DNA of 64,000 bases from an uncultured Eubacteriales bacterium (GCA_964516565.1 CAZEXA010000002.1:1556-65555); one strand, 5' to 3'; counted from the first letter of the stretch, positions 1,895 to 11,942 are shown. Program-made: numbers and translations. The notes: generated by a model from the letters alone, not told the origin.

Positions 1895-2803
1895 ATGCGT
1901 TTTGCCACACAAACAGATTTCGCCGTCAGCCGGTTCGGCGAGGAAAAGGGCATTCAGCTTTTAGCTGACGCCGGTTTTGAAAACCTTGATTACAGCATGT
2001 TCATCTATGAAAACAATGAAGCGCCTTTTACGCTTCCCGATGATGAGTTTACCGCGTTTTTTCAGAAAATCGCCGCATTGATTCACAGCAAGGGTATGAC
2101 CGTTGATCAAACGCATCCGCCGTTTCCAACCTACATCGGTGATTCTGAAGATGACGAGCAGCGTCTCGTGATTCAAAAAAAAGCCATTAAAGCCACCGCC
2201 CTGCTCGGTGCCCGGTACGCCATCGTTCATCCGGCTATGGTTGCTATGCGCCGGTATGACGCGTACAAAAGCGAGATGAAAGAGATCAATATGAAGCGGT
2301 ATATGGACCTTGCGCCGACGCTTGAGGAGTACGGGGTCGTCTGCTGTATCGAAAACATGTTCGCACGCGACAGCCATACAAAAATTATTTGCCCGACAAC
2401 CTGTACGACCGCCGAGGAGATGGCTGACTATATCGACACCCTCAACAATCTTTGCGGTGCTCCCCTCTTTGCGGCCTGCCTTGACACAGGCCACGCGAGC
2501 ATCATCCACTATGACGGTTACGAAACGGTTAATCCTGTTAGTATGATTCGTATTCTCGGGGACAGACTCAAGGCGCTGCACGTGCAGGACACCGACGGCA
2601 TCGGCGACGACCATATGCCGCCGGGACTCGGTAAAAATGACTGGGACAGCATCTGTAAAGCGCTTAAGGATGTCGGTTACGACGGCATATTCACCTTAGA
2701 GGCAGACCGCCTCTGCATCCGCTGCGGCAGTGACTGCGCCCTCGAAAGCGAGCGCCTGCTGTATGCCACGGCAAAGGCGGTCGTCGACCGGAACTGGCCG
2801 TAA
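1895..2803 (+). CDS. Sugar phosphate isomerase/epimerase (xylose isomerase-like TIM barrel, AP_endonuc_2 family)
   Basis: 302 aa. Motifs: AGFENLDYSM, ARYAIVHP, CIENMF, LDTGHA, LHVQDTDG..DDHMPPGLGKNDW, GYDGIFTLE. Confidence 0.8.
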   Translation: MRFATQTDFAVSRFGEEKGIQLLADAGFENLDYSMFIYENNEAPFTLPDDEFTAFFQKIAALIHSKGMTVDQTHPPFPTYIGDSEDDEQRLVIQKKAIKATALLGARYAIVHPAMVAMRRYDAYKSEMKEINMKRYMDLAPTLEEYGVVCCIENMFARDSHTKIICPTTCTTAEEMADYIDTLNNLCGAPLFAACLDTGHASIIHYDGYETVNPVSMIRILGDRLKALHVQDTDGIGDDHMPPGLGKNDWDSICKALKDVGYDGIFTLEADRLCIRCGSDCALESERLLYATAKAVVDRNWP

Positions 2804-2858
2804 AGCCGTATCACAAAAAACCACGCTTTTTTCAGCTAAAATATGCCCAAAATGAATG

Positions 2859-2898
2859 AATCCGAGGCTCACCGTTTCGATGACCCTCGGATTTTTTT
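2859..2898. terminator. Bidirectional rho-independent terminator at the left edge of the AT-rich island
   Basis: aatccgaggctca / tgaccctcggatt forms a 13-bp stem with one mismatch and a 9-nt loop. It is followed by T7 on the + strand and preceded by an A/T-rich run that serves the minus strand. Confidence 0.6.
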
Positions 2899-2986
2899 AA
2901 CTGTTTTTTATATCCCTTTTAATTCAGTTGTGCTTCTCCAGTTTTCGAAAGAGATATAATCTATTGATACTGCGCAGGACTTTCCC

Positions 2987-3568
2987 TTATTCATTTTGCA
3001 TTTTGAATCCATAAATAATATCACTAAATCCATTAAAATCCCACGTTGCTTCCGCACAATCAATCATATCTTCAATAGTACCTTCGTATTCGTTAAAAAG
3101 CATAATACCCTCTTTGGTTTCAAACTCGTGAGTTATGGTATAACTTCCATCATCGTTTTTTATATATTCAATCGTAGATTGTTCGGATATTTCATCATTA
3201 TCTATCATTAACCCGTAAGTCGGCTCTTTGAAAACAGACGGCCATATATATAACGATATATCAGGAGTACCTGATGGTATAATTTTGCCATCGGAATCCG
3301 TTTGTACGGTAAATGTCCCCCAGTTAAGTGATATAAATCCGTTATTATGTAAAAACCCCGGCGGATAAACTTTATATGTGAATTCATCTACCTTTTTTTC
3401 GTAATTCATTTTTAAAGAAGCTGAAAAATTCATTTCTGCCCCTTGGCTATATCCGTAATATGGCGTACGACAAAAAATATCCCACCACAAACAAATAAAA
3501 AACGCGCTAGTAATTACTATTATAGCTAAAATTGTAAGCTTTTTCTCAGCTTTTATTTCTTTTCTCAT
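2987..3568 (-). CDS. Hypothetical membrane-anchored protein, paralog 2 of a tandem pair
   Basis: 193 aa. The N-terminal K-rich segment plus one TM helix (KKLTILAIIVITSAFFICLWW) precedes a ~150-aa soluble domain. It shares motif blocks with the upstream paralog, and its start overlaps that gene's stop (ATGA). Confidence 0.7.
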   Translation of the reverse strand: MRKEIKAEKKLTILAIIVITSAFFICLWWDIFCRTPYYGYSQGAEMNFSASLKMNYEKKVDEFTYKVYPPGFLHNNGFISLNWGTFTVQTDSDGKIIPSGTPDISLYIWPSVFKEPTYGLMIDNDEISEQSTIEYIKNDDGSYTITHEFETKEGIMLFNEYEGTIEDMIDCAEATWDFNGFSDIIYGFKMQNE

Positions 3569-4161
3569 TTTGTTTTTACTTTCCAGCCATTAATGATGTC
3601 GTTCATTCCGTCAAAGTCCCATGTTTCTTCCGCGCATTTAAGCATTTCTTCTATAGTGCCCTCATATTCGTTAAAAACATCAATTGTATCTTGATTATCA
3701 AAGCTATGTTCGATAATATAACTACCATCCTTATTTTTTGTGAATGTTATTATTGATTGTTCGGATATCTCCCTTTTATCAAAATCTATCATTAATCCAT
3801 ATTTTGGGTTTTTAAAAACAGAAGGCCATATGAACAATGATAAATCGGGTTCATCAGGATATATAAATTTACCTTCAGAAGCTACAGTAACAGAAAATGT
3901 TCCTGAGCGAACCGCTATAAACCCGCCGCTGCTTAAAAAGGCAGGACTATGTACCTCGCAGTTGATTTTGCCAATATCCTTTTCATACTGTTTTGTTTCA
4001 AAGGCTGTTGTTACAAGTTCAAAGCCGTCGGAATATCCCGCGTAAGGAAGATAATAAAAAAGAATCCATCGTAAACAAACTGCTAAGGCAATTACAATTA
4101 TTAAAACAGCTAAAATCGTTAATTTTTTCCAAGCATTTAAGTTTTTCAGTTTCTTTATCAT
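3565..4161 (-). CDS. Hypothetical membrane-anchored protein, paralog 1 of a tandem pair
   Basis: 198 aa with a single N-terminal TM helix (KKLTILAVLIIVIALAVCL). Shared blocks are PYxGYSxG, GTFxV, PDxSLxIWPSVFKxPxYGLMID, EISEQS, DGSYxIxHxF and FNEYEGTIExMxxCAExTWDFxG. ATGA overlaps occur at both ends. Confidence 0.7.
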   Translation of the reverse strand: MIKKLKNLNAWKKLTILAVLIIVIALAVCLRWILFYYLPYAGYSDGFELVTTAFETKQYEKDIGKINCEVHSPAFLSSGGFIAVRSGTFSVTVASEGKFIYPDEPDLSLFIWPSVFKNPKYGLMIDFDKREISEQSIITFTKNKDGSYIIEHSFDNQDTIDVFNEYEGTIEEMLKCAEETWDFDGMNDIINGWKVKTK

Positions 4162-4766
4162 AACTTAATAACCCTCCCGTTTTTAGGTATAATGTTCATA
4201 TTATGTGTAACAAGAACTACGGTTTTACCTTTTTTACTCAACTCGAGGAGCATACTTAAAACAATATTGGCGTTTTCCATATCCAAGGACCCGGTGGGTT
4301 CATCCGCTAAAATAATACTACATCTTTTAAGCATCACTCTTGCTAAGGCAACCCGTTGCTGTTCGCCGCCTGAAAGCTTAAAAACCTTTGTGTCAATTTT
4401 GTCTTTTAAGTCTACATTTGTTAAAATCTCTTCTATGGTTATATCTTCCCGGCATTTTTTTGGTATGATTTTTAGATTTTCTCTTACTGTTTTACCCTCG
4501 ATAAGGGCAAAGTTTTGAAAAAGGAAGCACACGCCGTCACTGAAATATTTTTTTTGATTTTTCTTTTTATATATATTAATATTATTCACTGTAACAAAGC
4601 CCTTGTCGGGTTTTTCCAAGCCGCCTATTATATTTAATATCGTGCTTTTGCCGCACCCGCTTTTACCTGTAAAAACAATAAACTCACCATCATTTACGGT
4701 CAGACTGTAATTTTCAAATAAGACTTTGTCATCAAATGCTTTGGTTATTTCTTTGATCTCAATCAT
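4158..4766 (-). CDS. Small ABC transporter ATP-binding protein (bacteriocin/lactococcin-972-group-like)
   Basis: 202 aa. Walker A GKSGCGKST, signature LSGGEQQR, Walker B IILADEPT, H-loop VTHN. No TMD is present. The gene overlaps the permease stop. Confidence 0.85.
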   Translation of the reverse strand: MIEIKEITKAFDDKVLFENYSLTVNDGEFIVFTGKSGCGKSTILNIIGGLEKPDKGFVTVNNINIYKKKNQKKYFSDGVCFLFQNFALIEGKTVRENLKIIPKKCREDITIEEILTNVDLKDKIDTKVFKLSGGEQQRVALARVMLKRCSIILADEPTGSLDMENANIVLSMLLELSKKGKTVVLVTHNMNIIPKNGRVIKL

Positions 4767-6715
4767 AACGCCCCTCCTTTGATTATTTTGATAACATTTC
4801 TCTTTTCAAAACGACTTATAGCCCATGCCGTTATAACGGTTTCGAGTATTAAAACAATTCCGCCGCAACCTAAGGCAACAAGTTTTAAGGAAATTTGTAA
4901 AAGAAAGAAAATAATGATTGCTGTCATTATACCTATTAAAGCGGAATACACATTGAGGAAAATCAGAGATTTGTTTTTAGAAAATATTCCGTATCCCACT
5001 ATTTTTTTAACCGCTAATTCTATAGCGTTGGCATTGTATTCGATTTTTATCAATGCGGATATTAACAAAAAATCTATGAGAAGCTGCAAAATAATCAATA
5101 TCAGGCTTAAAGAAACAATTTTTGTAAGAACCGTTTTATTGTTATTAAAAACACTCTCGGCGGAAATTACTTCAAGATTTATTTCATTTTCCTCAAGAAA
5201 AGAATGACTGTTATTCAAAAACTCTGTTTCATACATAATTTCCAAACCGTTTGACGAACTTAACAATTCCTCATCGCAACTATCAAAGCTTATGTTTTCC
5301 GTGTTACAGTAAATAAAAACAGGATTATCCGCGACGGCATACCCTAATTTAGCGTTTACCGAATCGTCTAAATCAAAGTATAACGCACGGGAGGGTTTTG
5401 AAGCGTTAAGAATTTTAAAATCAATTTTTTCAGACTTTATTCCCATTACAAGTTTGATATAAAAAGAACATGTATCCAGCAGAAATTTTTCTGTTTCCTC
5501 CTCGTTGTTACAGTTATATGGCAAAATGATTATACTTTCGCCGTTATTCACATAATCTTTAACTCCTGATTTTATTAGAACGGATAAATCATTGGTTAAA
5601 ATAAAATCTCTTTTTCCGCCCGTAAAAGGATTGTTCATTGAAAACGTAGAGGAATTTGTTTTAATGCTATCTATTAGGAGCTTATTATAATAAGGCGATA
5701 AGTCATCGTTTTCAGTAGATTTATCCTGCGACAGATGTACAAAGCATAATGCTTCATATTTTTCCACTGATTTATAGTTTATTAAAGGTTTAATATTCAC
5801 GCTTATTAAACCGACATTCACAGAAAGCAGCGTAAGCGTTAAAACCATTGACGCAACCTTTATAAGATAACAGTTTGAAACCGTAGCCTCTCCGATGTTT
5901 CCGCCATATATAATCTTTTTGTAATTGATTCTGTAAAGAGATAAATAAATAACGAAATTAAGGATGATTATTAAAGCCAAAGTTAAAATCATTGCAAAAA
6001 GATTAAAATCAGTAAAAAAGTAAAGCTTAAAAACAGCTCTCATAACAACAGCCGTCAAAGATAAAACAAGAGCGTCGATAATCGCGTTTTCTAATATAAC
6101 CCTGCGTTTTGGCATACCCAGGGATATTTTTAAGAAAATCTCTTTTTTCCTGAATTGCAGGTCCAAAGCGGAAATATAAAGATAAAAAACGCCCAACAGA
6201 GCCCAAAGGCCTGCCGAAAAAAGGAATTCTCCTTTATTATCATCCTGATGAAAATATCCCGTTGAAAATCTTTGGTTTATTTTTTTATATATTTCAATAA
6301 GCTCATAGTTTTTGCCGCCGATATAAAGCTTAATTTTTTCCATTATCGGGGCGGCGGTATTAAGATCATGAAACGAAACACTTGTTGCACCGGATAATGC
6401 ACCCTTAAAAACCCCTTGTGTTAATTGACGTTTCTCGGTTAATTCAATATAGGCGTTTTCGGTACAATAAATATCCAGATGAGTTTCGCCAAGCATATCG
6501 CAGGTTTGGTTAATAAAAAAAAACGGTTTTTTTGTTGAACGGCTGAGCTCATGAATATATGTAAAAAAATTCTCGCGGTTTTCTTCTTGAAGTGTAACAT
6601 TAACATAAGAATACTCAGCTGTAAAACCCGTTAAATGGCTTTGATACAACTCGCTGTTTAATATAAAACAAAAAATTAACAGGATGATTGTAATAAGAAT
6701 CTTGATTTTTTTCAC
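4763..6715 (-). CDS. Large polytopic ABC-associated permease (DUF1430 / bacteriocin-associated integral membrane protein-like, FtsX-type)
   Basis: 650 aa with a GTG start and SD AGAAGGAA. Layout: an N-terminal TM helix, ~150-aa loop, a TM cluster (residues ~165-310), a second ~230-aa soluble region, then a C-terminal TM cluster. Size and pairing with a ~200-aa ATPase match the DUF1430 family as I recall it. Confidence 0.65.
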   Translation of the reverse strand: MKKIKILITIILLIFCFILNSELYQSHLTGFTAEYSYVNVTLQEENRENFFTYIHELSRSTKKPFFFINQTCDMLGETHLDIYCTENAYIELTEKRQLTQGVFKGALSGATSVSFHDLNTAAPIMEKIKLYIGGKNYELIEIYKKINQRFSTGYFHQDDNKGEFLFSAGLWALLGVFYLYISALDLQFRKKEIFLKISLGMPKRRVILENAIIDALVLSLTAVVMRAVFKLYFFTDFNLFAMILTLALIIILNFVIYLSLYRINYKKIIYGGNIGEATVSNCYLIKVASMVLTLTLLSVNVGLISVNIKPLINYKSVEKYEALCFVHLSQDKSTENDDLSPYYNKLLIDSIKTNSSTFSMNNPFTGGKRDFILTNDLSVLIKSGVKDYVNNGESIIILPYNCNNEEETEKFLLDTCSFYIKLVMGIKSEKIDFKILNASKPSRALYFDLDDSVNAKLGYAVADNPVFIYCNTENISFDSCDEELLSSSNGLEIMYETEFLNNSHSFLEENEINLEVISAESVFNNNKTVLTKIVSLSLILIILQLLIDFLLISALIKIEYNANAIELAVKKIVGYGIFSKNKSLIFLNVYSALIGIMTAIIIFFLLQISLKLVALGCGGIVLILETVITAWAISRFEKRNVIKIIKGGAL

Positions 6716-6731
6716 TTTTAATTCCTTCTGA

Positions 6732-6772
6732 GAGGAAGCGGCGTCCTCCGCCGCTTCCTCCGGCGGTTTTTT
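6732..6772. other. GC-rich dual-hairpin element embedded in the AT-rich leader
   Basis: Hairpin A is gaggaagcggcg (6732-6743) paired with cgccgcttcctc (6749-6760), a 12-bp stem. Alternative hairpin B is ccgccg (6748-6753) paired with cggcgg (6761-6766), followed by TTTTTT (6767-6772) on the + strand. Confidence 0.5.
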
Positions 6773-6775
6773 AGG

Positions 6776-7000
6776 ATGGATATTCTAATTGAATGTAATA
6801 GATTACACTATCAGGACTATGATTTTTACTGCAAGTTGACTACTTTTTCTATACGTATTTACATAAAAAGTTGTAATTTAAAAATAAAAGGAAACATTTG
6901 TTATAATTTACCGCAATTTATAATATGTGTCAAGCGGTATATTTATAGAAATTGCACTAATTTCAACAGAACAAGTCTTGAAAAAAGCAAAGACAAATGA
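6776..7000 (+). CDS. Possible small Cys-rich basic protein (74 aa); coding status uncertain
   Basis: An uninterrupted 74-codon ORF in ~25% G+C DNA, where stop codons should be frequent. It has six Cys residues. No convincing SD or promoter was found, and it overlaps the predicted minus-strand promoter. Confidence 0.2.
   Translation: MDILIECNRLHYQDYDFYCKLTTFSIRIYIKSCNLKIKGNICYNLPQFIICVKRYIYRNCTNFNRTSLEKSKDK
6905..6933 (-). promoter_or_regulatory. Candidate sigma-A promoter for the island operon
   Basis: On the minus strand: TTGACA (6933..6928), a 17-nt spacer, then TAAATT (6910..6905), about 190 nt upstream of GTG 6715. Confidence 0.3.
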
Positions 7001-7095
7001 CCGTTAAGCCATTTGCCTTTCAATTTACTCGTCTCTCACTTCTACGTCATCAAGCTCTTTTGTGCTTAAAAACGACATTATTAAGCTTATTTGCT

Positions 7096-9387: not shown

Positions 9388-10017
9388 TTATTTTTTCTTA
9401 GGCTTCGGTTCGGGGTTCTGCCTTGTGGCAAACTGCTTGATGGTGCCCGGCAAATACCCGAGGAACGCCACGAGCGTCAAAACGGCGGATATGGCGACAA
9501 GGACGACAAGAACCACATCGGGCAAGACAAAATACCGGCTGAACGCACCGAAATCCGGAGCAAACGCGATGAGAATCGTCATAATGGCATAAAAGACGAA
9601 GGTTGCCAGCTTTCCGTAGGATTCGGCGGGACTCGGGCGTAAATTCAAGACTAACAGCGCCGCGCCGCCGATGACCATGATGGCTTCCTTAATTAAGAAT
9701 ATCAGAAAAATCCACGCGAAAGCGACGAGGGTTTTATGAGTGCTGCCATGGAATTTGATGAAGAGCATCACCGCGAGCGTAATCTGCGTCAGCTTGTCCG
9801 CTACGGGGTCGAGAACCTTGCCGAGATCGCTGATCTGATTAAACCGGCGTGCAATTTTACCGTCAAAGGTATCGGTCAGTCCCGATACCAGCAGCACGGA
9901 GACAGCCCAGATATAGTAACCTTTATAAAACAGAACGGCAAAGACCGGCACCAGAGCGATGCGTATCACCGTTAAAAGGTTCGGGATTGTCCAGCAGTTT
10001 TTAAATAGACCCTTCAT
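9388..10017 (-). CDS. pgsA: CDP-alcohol phosphatidyltransferase (phosphatidylglycerophosphate synthase-like)
   Basis: Motif DTFDGKIARRFNQISDLGKVLDPVADK fits D-x2-DG-x2-AR-x8-G-x3-D-x3-D. The start was trimmed to ATG 10017 (MKGLFKN), which has SD AAAGGAAAG. The track ORF begins at GTG 10041. Confidence 0.7.
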   Translation of the reverse strand: MKGLFKNCWTIPNLLTVIRIALVPVFAVLFYKGYYIWAVSVLLVSGLTDTFDGKIARRFNQISDLGKVLDPVADKLTQITLAVMLFIKFHGSTHKTLVAFAWIFLIFLIKEAIMVIGGAALLVLNLRPSPAESYGKLATFVFYAIMTILIAFAPDFGAFSRYFVLPDVVLVVLVAISAVLTLVAFLGYLPGTIKQFATRQNPEPKPKKK

Positions 10018-10050
10018 ATTATCTTTCCTTTCTTCACGCACAAGATACCC

Positions 10051-10788
10051 TTATCCGTCAAATCTGCCGATGACGGGGTTAACATCGTTTACAAGGCTGA
10101 CAACCCGTGATTCTTTGATGGCGTCTTTAACCACGCCGTTTGTGATACCGCTCAGATAATAGAGAGCGGTACAAATTACCAGAATGAAAACGATTCCCTT
10201 AACAACGCCCAAGCACGCTCCGAGCGATTTGTTGGCGCCCTTTAAGACGGGAAGCTTAAACACCTTATTGATAAGCCTTGTCAAAAGCCCGAGCACAATG
10301 CTCGCGACAATAAAAATAATCAAACTGCAGACAGCCGCCATCATGACGATGGCAACGGGACGAATGACCGTTTCGGTAACACTGGACGCGATATTGCCCG
10401 CCGATAAATCGGCCTTCGTCAGTGAGTTTACCAATTTATCAATGCTGATGCCCATGCTCTTACTGAAAGCAATGAGCGTATCCGGCAGCCCGGAGACGAC
10501 CTCCTGTACCTGTTTTAAAGAGTTAGCTGCGGAGGACGCGGTCAGTTTGTCGGCGACGGACTTTTCAATCATTTTCCGCACAAATTTCTCATACAGAAAT
10601 TCCGCTGCCGGACGGCTGAAAAGATAAGCCGCCAAAAATGAAAGCACTGTCGCCGCAAGATCCAGCACAATCTTCCCAAAGCCCTTTTTGGCTGAACGGA
10701 CGACAATAAGTACAAATATCACCAACAGCGCTATGTCGATAACATACGGCACAAAGAATCGTTTCCTTTCATAAATATTTTTCGTCAA
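10051..10788 (-). CDS. cvpA: CvpA-family integral membrane protein
   Basis: 245 aa with several TM helices. The N-terminus IDIALLVIFVLIVVRSAKKGFGKIVLDL is typical of CvpA. Confidence 0.55.
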   Translation of the reverse strand: MTKNIYERKRFFVPYVIDIALLVIFVLIVVRSAKKGFGKIVLDLAATVLSFLAAYLFSRPAAEFLYEKFVRKMIEKSVADKLTASSAANSLKQVQEVVSGLPDTLIAFSKSMGISIDKLVNSLTKADLSAGNIASSVTETVIRPVAIVMMAAVCSLIIFIVASIVLGLLTRLINKVFKLPVLKGANKSLGACLGVVKGIVFILVICTALYYLSGITNGVVKDAIKESRVVSLVNDVNPVIGRFDG

Positions 10789-11942
10789 TCACTGACGGCA
10801 TACTCCCTATTAATTTGACCGAGGGAATACAGGTAGACGTATCGGCTGCTGCCGAAAACCTTTTCGGTTTTGACGGTGAGCGGCATTTGGCTGATACACG
10901 CTCCCTTTAGATTATAAACTAAAACACTGTCCTCGGCAAGTAGGAAAACATATTTTCCGTCAGTGAAAAGATCACTCACGCTCTGCTCTAACTGTACCGA
11001 ACAAAGCTCCTTTCCTTTTTGACCGGTGACAAACAGCTCGCAGAGGTTGCTTCCGCCGTATTTGGTCAGCGCCAGCGCCGTTACGCCGTTTTCCGCAGAT
11101 GACCGGTAACCGAGTTCGGACGAATAAAAGCTTTTGATTTGGGTCAGCTCTTTGAGCCCCTTAAGGGTATATATTCCGCTGTCCGTGAAAATATACAGAA
11201 GCTTGTTCGACAAATAGCGGACAGACAGTACGGTCACCCCGTCAAAGGTATGGGAATACAACTCGTCGCTGTAATCGACACCGAAAACATGAACCGTTGA
11301 TGTTACATCCCCATTTGACGCGCCGACGCTCGCTGCGGCGATATATTTCCCGCTGTCTGACAGCGAAACGGAGATGATGTGTTCGTAGGCGCAGTTGAAA
11401 ATAAAAATTTGCTCTCCCCGTTTGTCCGTGACATACAGGCGGCTTGTCGCCTCATCACAGCGCTCGGATACAGCCGTTTCGCCGTTGTTTCCTCTCTGCA
11501 TGGTCAGAATATTGCCGTCCTTGGCGTTATCCTCTGCGGTAACTTTATAATTTTTAACCGCCATATAGCCGGAGCCGCCTCTGTCAAACACAAGCAGGCA
11601 GCCGTCCCCCGCTGACACCGCGGGTAAGGCAAACGTATGCGTTTTTGTAAGCTTAAGTTCTCCCGCCTCATCGTACATCTTCAGGTCGTTATCCGAAAGG
11701 ACATAAAATCCGCCGCTGCAAGCACCGAGGCTCACAAGATTGTCTGAATCGACCGTCAGCGGAAATTCGCCGCCGTCGTCCCCGAGCACATAAGCGCGTA
11801 TACGCGCCGAAATACCCGTATAAGGCATGGCGCCGAACAACGCTCCGACAACATAGACGACCGCAAAGGCCGCCGCCAGTGCAGCGACAATAACGACAAT
11901 CCTTTTCAGCGTACTCTTCTTTTTTTTGCGCTTTTTACTCAA
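10785..11942 (-). CDS. Hypothetical membrane-anchored protein with a beta-rich (propeller-like) ectodomain
   Basis: 385 aa. The poly-K N-terminus and one TM helix (IVVIVAALAAAFAVVYVV) are followed by a repetitive beta-strand-like region. It overlaps cvpA by 4 nt. Confidence 0.6.
   Translation of the reverse strand: MSKKRKKKKSTLKRIVVIVAALAAAFAVVYVVGALFGAMPYTGISARIRAYVLGDDGGEFPLTVDSDNLVSLGACSGGFYVLSDNDLKMYDEAGELKLTKTHTFALPAVSAGDGCLLVFDRGGSGYMAVKNYKVTAEDNAKDGNILTMQRGNNGETAVSERCDEATSRLYVTDKRGEQIFIFNCAYEHIISVSLSDSGKYIAAASVGASNGDVTSTVHVFGVDYSDELYSHTFDGVTVLSVRYLSNKLLYIFTDSGIYTLKGLKELTQIKSFYSSELGYRSSAENGVTALALTKYGGSNLCELFVTGQKGKELCSVQLEQSVSDLFTDGKYVFLLAEDSVLVYNLKGACISQMPLTVKTEKVFGSSRYVYLYSLGQINREYAVSD

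Follow-up and report, generated by a model that had tools for sequence, protein, structure and literature searches.

A low-G+C four-gene ABC transporter island, probably an immunity-type module without its bacteriocin gene, in an uncultured Eubacteriales bacterium

The four-gene island and its borders

The 64,000-nucleotide (nt) stretch of DNA analysed here, hereafter the window, comes from an uncultured Eubacteriales bacterium (GCA_964516565.1, contig CAZEXA010000002.1, positions 1556-65555). Near its left end lies an AT-rich island, whose neighbours are genes for a GH38 alpha-mannosidase, a xylose-isomerase-like TIM-barrel protein (tim302, 1895-2803) and ClpE. The island contains four open reading frames (ORFs) on the minus strand. 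They encode, in order of transcription, a permease of 650 residues with a GTG start (4763-6715), an ATP-binding cassette (ABC) ATPase of 202 residues (4158-4766) and two bitopic membrane proteins, called sp198 (198 residues, 3565-4161) and sp193 (193 residues, 2987-3568). The four ORFs make up one operon. Successive genes share exact ATGA stop/start overlaps at 4763-4766, 4158-4161 and 3565-3568, and they are translationally coupled. A first-pass annotation, made from the sequence alone, had described this four-gene operon with its three overlaps, and every ORF and overlap was recovered exactly. We consider it likely that the block is a horizontally acquired orphan immunity-type module.

From 2801 to 7000 the G+C content (GC) is 0.30-0.36 in 400-nt windows, and it is 0.54-0.60 on both sides. 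The island is the sole stretch of the 64 kb in which 1-kb bins have a GC below 0.46. At third codon positions, GC (GC3) is 0.28-0.36 in the four island genes versus 0.56-0.73 in six flanking genes. The compositional break is therefore not an amino-acid effect, and the drop in GC seen at first pass is borne out by both measures.

On the left, the island is bounded by the intrinsic terminator of the host xylose-isomerase-like gene (2859-2898, plus strand), identified as an inverted repeat and by folding. On the plus strand, this hairpin has a folding energy of -20.2 kcal/mol (z -4.8) and a U7 tail after it. Since it folds on the minus strand as well (-23.9 kcal/mol), it may also terminate the island operon. 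An AT-rich non-coding spacer (2899-2986; GC 0.28-0.38 in 50-nt windows) runs from the terminator to the last island gene, and the left junction of the foreign DNA is somewhere within it. DNA similarity to the closest relative, locus L098, stops exactly at the sp193 stop codon (window position 2987). The right-hand counterpart is a terminator-like hairpin and T-run downstream of clpE (6989-7020, minus strand), 75-107 nt past the clpE stop codon; it probably marks the limit of host DNA. Because of this hairpin, the right limit of the foreign DNA was set near 6980: host DNA probably reaches to about 6983, and the foreign block would extend over about 2899-6980 and not to 7095. Hence the first-pass placement of the low-GC block, exactly between the 2859-2898 terminator and the clpE stop codon, was kept on the left and moved inwards on the right.

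The flanks of the island contain no integrase or transposase gene, in agreement with the first-pass annotation, and no direct repeats that could be att sites were found bracketing it. No tRNA gene is present in the 64 kb, and no Rfam family was detected in the island or elsewhere in the window. The borders thus have none of the features by which genomic islands are usually delimited, namely an integrase, att repeats and a tRNA target.

The region upstream of the permease gene holds two features of interest. A GC-rich stem-loop with a perfect 13-bp stem is located directly 5' of the permease ribosome-binding site (6732-6764, minus strand). Its 101-nt context folds at -29.8 kcal/mol (z -4.05), and it is unique in the window. 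Further upstream, a candidate sigma-70-like promoter for the operon (TTGACA, 17 nt, TAAATT; 6905-6933, minus strand) matches the consensus at 10 of 12 positions. Promoter-type sites in this region are not more frequent than expected from shuffled sequence, so the site is a candidate only.

The permease, the ATPase and the bitopic proteins

The only family matches of the permease are to DUF1430 (PF07242; 25.3 bits, cut-off 28.2), at residues 542-647, and to TIGR01654 (21.2 bits, cut-off 189.35), on the C-terminal 124 residues only. A search of 5.8 billion protein clusters returned 12 relatives of the permease. All 12 match PF07242 at E <= 0.01 (best 1.4e-8), which makes homology of the C-terminal module likely. 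Hydropathy analysis shows seven strongly hydrophobic segments. An AlphaFold2 model built on the 12 relative sequences (pLDDT, the predicted local distance difference test score, 75; pTM, the predicted template modelling score, 0.60) has eight membrane helices. These are arranged as two repeats of one transmembrane (TM) helix, an extracytoplasmic domain and three TM helices, the extracytoplasmic domains covering residues ~35-160 and 323-518. The ORF, the hydropathy profile and the model agree with the earlier description of a polytopic (nominally 7-TM) protein with large extracytoplasmic regions.

Search for similar structures in the PDB with Foldseek returned YbbAP (E 1.8e-10) and BceAB (2e-5), followed by the Streptococcus pneumoniae MacAB-like structure 5XU1, LolCDE, MacB, YtrEF, HrtBA and FtsEX. 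The top of the list consists of type VII ABC transporters only, with a probability of 1.00. The TM-scores against solved members of this class are low (0.2-0.39), owing to differing domain arrangements and to the moderate confidence of the model. An E(I/L)xxxKxxxG motif, which we take to be FtsX-like, is present in both halves of the protein; apart from this shared motif, no internal duplication was detectable by BLAST or hhalign. From the model, the permease is predicted to have a type VII (MacB/FtsX) ABC transporter fold and would be a fused double protein of this type.

The ATPase is composed of a nucleotide-binding domain only (PF00005, E 4.8e-34), as annotated at first pass. Its motifs are intact in the translation, with Walker A GKSGCGKST, signature LSGGEQQR, Walker B ILADEPT and H-loop VTHN. 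The best NCBIfam match is TIGR03608 (227.3 bits, cut-off 254.85); the next is FtsE (161.6 bits). The first-pass annotation had assigned the two proteins to a DUF1430/TIGR01654 plus TIGR03608 immunity transporter pair. These families are indeed the best or only ones matched, and the fold is of the FtsX/MacB type, but all scores are below the curated cut-offs. The permease and ATPase are therefore divergent relatives: on these scores the island is clearly related to TIGR01654, TIGR03608 and PF07242 without belonging to them by threshold. The first-pass reading had been staked on DUF1430- or FtsX-type homology of the permease; DUF1430 matches and an FtsX/MacB-type fold were both found.

sp198 and sp193 are 52% identical. 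Both begin with a lysine-rich stretch, close to which is a single hydrophobic segment (residues 11-29 in sp193), in line with the two paralogous single-pass proteins of the first-pass annotation. We interpret both as bitopic proteins of type II whose extracytoplasmic domain has about 150 residues. Neither matches any Pfam or NCBIfam family. The AlphaFold2 model of sp198 (pLDDT 82.7) shows a 34-residue helix (residues 10-43), an eight-stranded sheet and three C-terminal helices. Comparison of this model with the PDB gave no significant fold match (best E 0.22). Lipocalin, JHBP and START-like folds were considered and rejected as insignificant (E 0.2-0.5, probability <= 0.14).

The family is small. 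Six relatives of sp198 were retrieved among the 5.8 billion protein clusters, and a HMMER profile of the bitopic family, searched against 1.84 billion representatives, retrieved 144 proteins at E <= 1e-3. None of the 51 representatives scanned matches a curated family. Some members are tandem fusions of two copies, 340-367 residues long with two matched stretches (P0044, P0047-P0051, P0107, P0158), consistent with a paired action of the two window paralogues. Nine locus types were compared: the window, L001/2, L003/4, L005/6, L089/90, L091, L092-96, L097 and L098. In all nine, the permease and ATPase genes adjoin one or two genes of the bitopic family. These are downstream in the window and in L005/6, L089/90, L091, L092-96, L097 and L098, and upstream in L001/2 and L003/4. 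Orthologues of sp193 adjoin the permease and ATPase genes in L005, L091, L092 and L098. Judged from these sequence comparisons, the bitopic proteins are more than incidental: they make up a third part of the module that is conserved and has no annotation.

A host protein of the window shows a faint resemblance to this family. The conserved DUF5711 protein (10785-11942, minus strand) matches the bitopic hidden Markov model (HMM) weakly (E 4.7e-4 among 1182 window ORFs). In its translation, the N-terminal anchor is followed by a PYxG motif (…FGAMPYTGIS…) comparable to …YYLPYAGYS… in sp198. The likeness probably reflects a shared anchor feature and not homology.

The same proteins could be seen as exported effectors or toxins of about 195 residues, with the ABC pair as their exporter or processing machine, so that the island would be a producer locus. 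Both have N-terminal hydrophobic leaders and neither has a known fold. They are duplicated and diverged (52% identity; dS, the synonymous divergence, 1.76), and their copy number varies between loci, as is often the case for toxin or immunity genes. However, the hydrophobic segment runs into an invariant juxtamembrane motif (W32, F35, P39, Y40, Y43), and the anchor is modelled as one continuous 34-residue helix devoid of a conserved signal-peptidase site. The lysine-rich N-terminus fits a cytoplasmic N-terminus followed by a stable anchor. Bitopic proteins are also present where a separate Sec-type bacteriocin is encoded, and type VII ABC transporters are not known to export folded proteins across the membrane. 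We regard a producer locus as very unlikely.

Related cassettes, the missing bacteriocin gene and the origin of the island

In the window, the ATPase gene adjoins the permease gene and no bacteriocin gene accompanies them, but one is found beside the homologues in five other locus types. There, a secreted protein of 115-154 residues is encoded directly beside the module (L003, L005/6, L091, L092-96 and L097). Against NF052268 ('mediterrocin family bacteriocin', cut-off 40), the proteins of L003, L005 and L091 reach 54-71 bits, and one of them also matches TIGR01653 (lactococcin 972) weakly (E 0.025). The L092-96 protein, itself not scanned against NF052268, is 70% identical to that of L005. 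For the L097 protein (Gracilibacillus boraciitolerans), the NCBI name is itself mediterrocin-family bacteriocin. Overall, a mediterrocin-family gene is directly beside the module in 5/7 locus types with a readable upstream region. Assignment of the candidate bacteriocin to lactococcin 972 (Lcn972) itself by sequence was rejected: a PDB profile search did not return 2LGN, Pfam gave no match and only NCBIfam placed the protein. By its profile scores, the partner bacteriocin of the related loci is a member of the mediterrocin family (Lcn972-like) and not Lcn972 proper. The window proteins are 43-52% (permease), 66-71% (ATPase) and 27-54% (bitopic proteins) identical to those encoded beside the L003, L005, L091 and L092 bacteriocins.

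In L005/6 and L091 the cassette comprises eight genes in the order extracytoplasmic function (ECF) sigma factor, 247-259-residue protein, 165-residue secreted protein, bacteriocin, permease, ATPase and two bitopic proteins. The start of the cassette (L005 7462-9389, L091 5043-6969) encodes an ECF-type sigma factor (TIGR02937, 92 bits). The single-pass 247-259-residue protein may be an anti-sigma factor, a guess based on its position beside the sigma gene and on a weak DUF4179 match (E 0.035). The 165-residue secreted protein is conserved and belongs to no family. This arrangement suggests that bacteriocin production in the complete cassettes is under sigma/anti-sigma control.

None of these upstream genes is found in the window. 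The ECF sigma, 247-259-residue and 165-residue secreted protein genes are all missing. A search of the six frames of the 64 kb with the family HMM (E <= 10) found no mediterrocin-family ORF, and tblastn with three family members gave chance matches only. The interval 6716-7095, where a remnant of the bacteriocin gene could have persisted, has no fitting ORF of at least 20 residues, and tblastn and HMM searches of it were empty. The non-coding flanks had no blastn match to the related cassettes at low stringency either. The first-pass annotation had reported no Lcn972-like precursor upstream and had called the module an orphan. The absence now extends to the rest of the 64 kb, and within that span the term orphan is apt, since in homologous cassettes the permease gene directly follows one for a secreted bacteriocin.

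The stem-loop upstream of the permease gene provides a link to the complete cassettes. In L005/6 and L092-96, a hairpin occupies the equivalent spot, after the bacteriocin stop codon and before the start codon of the permease gene. The window hairpin and its counterpart both carry AGGAAGC...GCTTCCT, and their inner stems differ by paired, compensatory changes (AATA/TATT versus GGCG/CGCC). In 122 fetched loci, estimated at roughly 1.8 Mb, the pattern AGGAAGC-N10-24-GCTTCCT occurs only at this bacteriocin-permease intergenic site of L005/6 and L092-96. We take the 6732-6764 hairpin to be a retained intercistronic element of the complete cassette. Its retention suggests an origin of the island from a complete cassette, with the cut just 5' of the hairpin. 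The hairpin could act as an attenuator, a processing site or a stabiliser.

These loci bear on a second alternative, according to which the module is a general pump against antimicrobial peptides or envelope stress (BceAB, YknWXYZ or MacAB-like) and its link with bacteriocin genes is secondary. The permease model has YbbAP, BceAB and the pneumococcal MacAB-like 5XU1 as its best PDB matches, neither the window nor L001 has a bacteriocin gene with the module, and here the module adjoins the stress gene clpE. Yet this adjacency is not conserved in the relatives, and the island lacks a two-component sensor of the BceRS type. The proportion of readable locus types with a mediterrocin-family gene beside the module also argues against a generic pump, as do the two locus types in which only the conserved hairpin parts the bacteriocin gene from the permease gene. 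A generic pump therefore seems rather unlikely.

The presence or absence of the bacteriocin gene also varies at a single site elsewhere. L001 (9187-9944, GCA_020025775.1) and L003 (7992-9938, GCA_003704445.1) represent the same chromosomal site, with malic enzyme on one side and permease, ATPase, GntR and ABC-2 system genes on the other. L003 has a mediterrocin-family gene and two bitopic genes at this site; L001 has one bitopic gene and no bacteriocin gene. The pair is a natural complete-versus-orphan polymorphism of one locus.

A foreign origin of the island is supported by its composition and by a second genomic context. In L098 (Logan run ERR13731180), the end of the permease gene, the ATPase gene and both bitopic genes are 81% identical to the window at the DNA level, and the flanks, with NAGidase, SIS and BadF-type genes, are unrelated to those of the window. 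Among 80 related Oscillospirales clpE loci, the island is present in none (0/80), and the upstream truA-DUF5711-cvpA-pgsA-clpE synteny is kept. The host belongs to the Acutalibacteraceae/Oscillospirales lineage, and its ClpE is at best 69-77% identical to those of Acutalibacteraceae metagenome-assembled genomes. Relatives of the module are found amid mobile-element genes: L091 has three tyrosine-recombinase genes and hipA around it, and L089 and L092 lie among genes resembling those of integrative and conjugative elements (ICEs), including DNA methylases, YodL and Tad-pilus genes. The first-pass label 'foreign' thus gains from the GC3 contrast, the similar copy in another context, the mobile surroundings of the relatives and the absence from related clpE loci. 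A search of PLSDB (72,556 plasmid records; the inclusion of pBL1 among them is unconfirmed) with the permease by tblastn gave no match, and only short DNA matches to the ATPase gene turned up. No relative of the module was found in IMG/VR.

Look-ups of the exact permease and ClpE sequences retrieved no recorded protein, and the same DNA turned up only in two Logan contigs of run SRR8925805, a host contig and an island contig (L087/L088), which overlap by 30 nt at 2796-2825, just past the tim302 stop codon. The island copy of this run has 2 mismatches in 3762 nt. The contig break would be an assembly-graph branch at the left junction and could reflect island-free strains in the sample, which is only a hint.

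At L092 6974-9837 and 15987-20372 (Joint Genome Institute (JGI) metagenome 3300031555), other candidate antimicrobial genes surround the cassette. They encode a secreted Peptidase_C39_2-like protein, radical SAM/SPASM enzymes, a PmbA/TldD-like protein and M23 peptidases. This locus has the appearance of an ICE-like element bearing an island of several bacteriocins.

Relative to L098, the ratio of nonsynonymous to synonymous substitution rates (dN/dS) is 0.10 for the ATPase, 0.12 for sp198, 0.18 for the C-terminus of the permease and 0.29 for sp193. By this measure the island genes are under purifying selection. A third alternative is that the island is a decaying, non-functional remnant of a cassette, silent since the loss of its toxin and regulator. 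The bacteriocin, ECF sigma and anti-sigma-like genes are indeed missing, no convincing promoter was found, and pneumococcal scbBC loci of the D39 type are not expressed under the conditions tested (PMC11796350). Against decay, the four ORFs are intact with their coupled ATGA overlaps, the motifs of the ATPase are preserved, the dN/dS values are low and the same four-gene end of the cassette is kept in L098. We find a silent remnant quite unlikely.

Proposed function and comparison with known systems

On the present evidence, the block would be the toxin-less 'immunity half' of a mediterrocin-type (lactococcin-972-like) bacteriocin cluster, whose immunity function we infer from the sequence relationships. 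The host would then probably resist the toxin of a neighbour without making it.

The closest described counterpart is the mediterrocin cluster. Mediterrocin is an 89-residue Sec-secreted bacteriocin of Mediterraneibacter gnavus with an Lcn972-like fold, confirmed by gene disruption (PMC12345188, Mingolelli et al., mBio 2025). In its cluster, mdcF encodes the bacteriocin, mdcH a DUF1430 protein annotated as 'probable immunity' and mdcI an ABC protein; the cluster has a low GC, has integrases nearby and is spread among Clostridia (PMC12345188). It thus shares with the window a DUF1430-type polytopic protein, an ABC ATPase and a GC that is low relative to the host, and it is itself set amid mobile elements and horizontally spread in gut Clostridia. 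Cassettes homologous to the window module also encode proteins that score above the NF052268 cut-off. The cluster further contains mdcE and mdcG, unassigned membrane and secreted proteins. In contrast, the window has no bacteriocin gene, regulator or mobile-element genes. The bacteriocins of the related cassettes are also distant from mediterrocin: a profile search reached only a Gracilibacillus member (E 3.8e-3), not mediterrocin.

The Lcn972 operon of pBL1 (lcn972, orf2, orf3) and the streptococcin operon scbABC likewise combine a Sec-secreted bacteriocin, a DUF1430/TIGR01654 protein and a TIGR03608-type ATPase. In the Lcn972 operon, orf2-orf3 have been treated as immunity genes (PMC4055356). 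Among pneumococcal genomes, 27.5% have scbBC without the bacteriocin gene scbA (PMC11796350), and these loci are in the same toxin-less state as the window. Toxin-less modules of this kind are therefore already known. The Lcn972 and streptococcin systems differ from the window in several respects. They have two immunity components where the window has four, the window permease scores only 21 bits on TIGR01654 (cut-off 189), and their hosts are low-GC Bacilli, unlike the Oscillospirales host of the window, whose GC is 52-57%.

Several points weigh against an acquired immunity module. No experiment shows immunity conferred by a DUF1430 plus ABC pair of this subfamily, and the functions of the B and C genes are unverified in any Lcn972 locus (PMC11796350, the streptococcin B paper). 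The TIGR01654, PF07242 and TIGR03608 matches all fall under curated cut-offs. The role given to the bitopic proteins is purely inferential, and their fold has no solved relative. The candidate promoter is a mere consensus match, found at chance frequency. The visible genome amounts to 64 kb, and a bacteriocin gene could lie elsewhere. Finally, an empty site was not found in a close relative. Among GTDB species genomes, relatives of the host ClpE are at most 77% identical and not syntenic downstream of clpE, and in a JGI metagenome scan the closest match to the tim302 protein did not exceed 48% identity; no empty site is available because the collections searched hold no close relative of the host.

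With an immunity module as the preferred reading, a mechanism can be proposed. The four proteins would form one envelope complex, in which a single permease is joined by two ATPase subunits and has both anchored proteins docked on or near its outer domains. ATP hydrolysis inside the cell would be converted into mechanical work at the outer face of the membrane (mechanotransmission). The pump might then strip the bacteriocin off its target or shield the target from it, in the way that BceAB acts on bacitracin. The target protected would probably be lipid II, as the analogy with Lcn972 suggests. The bitopic proteins could capture the bacteriocin or set the specificity of the pump, in a manner comparable to LanI with LanFEG; we hold this specific role only tentatively. 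Since the ECF sigma and anti-sigma-like genes are missing, expression would have to come from a local sigma-70-type promoter, for which 6933-6905 is the candidate, or from clpE read-through. The net effect would be resistance to the bacteriocin of neighbouring gut Clostridia without the cost of producing it.

Known type VII systems provide partial precedents. These transporters act by mechanotransmission on substrates outside the membrane. The window permease shares with BceAB, with YknWXYZ of Bacillus subtilis and with Spr0693-0695 of S. pneumoniae the succession TM helix, extracytoplasmic domain and three TM helices, as well as a separate nucleotide-binding domain. It does not belong to the BceAB-type family at the sequence level, and the window has no BceRS-type sensor. 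BceB has 10 helices, versus 8 modelled in the window permease. In YknWXYZ and the MacAB-like pumps, the transporter works with an extracytoplasmic partner that crosses the membrane once. The partner proteins of the window, in contrast, are not membrane-fusion-protein-like, and they matched no solved fold. LanFEG and LanI offer another likeness, an ABC transporter and an anchored extracytoplasmic protein that jointly protect against a lipid-II-binding bacteriocin. However, LanFEG is of the unrelated ABC-2 type, the LanI proteins are lipoproteins and not bitopic, and there is no similarity in sequence or fold.

More speculatively, sp198 and sp193 may represent a new and structurally unprecedented class of immunity component, namely anchored partners of a type VII ABC transporter that act at the outer face, recognise Lcn972/mediterrocin-type toxins and set specificity. 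We think this less likely than not. If it is correct, duplication, divergence, tandem fusion and shuffling of the bitopic genes would decide which gut Clostridia are immune to which others. Cross-resistance would then commonly arise through toxin-less four-gene islands, and the bacteriocin concerned has been reported in about 80% of human gut metagenomes.

The first description of mediterrocin-type bacteriocins dates only from 2025, and the findings made here extend current views and overturn none. In this branch, the protective module would have four parts and not two, including a conserved protein family for which databases hold no model. Its spread into hosts as distant as this high-GC Oscillospirales member, with the toxin left behind, would weaken competition or therapy based on bacteriocins. 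The value of the island lies mostly in the unannotated partner family and in what appears to be a clean case of toxin-less mediterrocin-type immunity spread to a distant gut lineage. The compact four-gene module is also suited to the study of MacB/BceAB-like mechanotransmission as a protection against a protein toxin.

Two minor features of the window complete the description. Milder dips in GC (0.43-0.46), both far weaker than that of the island, occur at 1601-2200, over the GH38/TIM-barrel intergenic region and the 5' part of the TIM-barrel gene, and at 10001-11000, over a cvpA-like gene. In the AT-rich region upstream of the operon, opposite the candidate promoter, a 74-residue ORF with an ATG start (6776-7000, plus strand) is rich in I, K, N and Y. 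This is the composition expected of AT-rich non-coding DNA, and the ORF is probably spurious.

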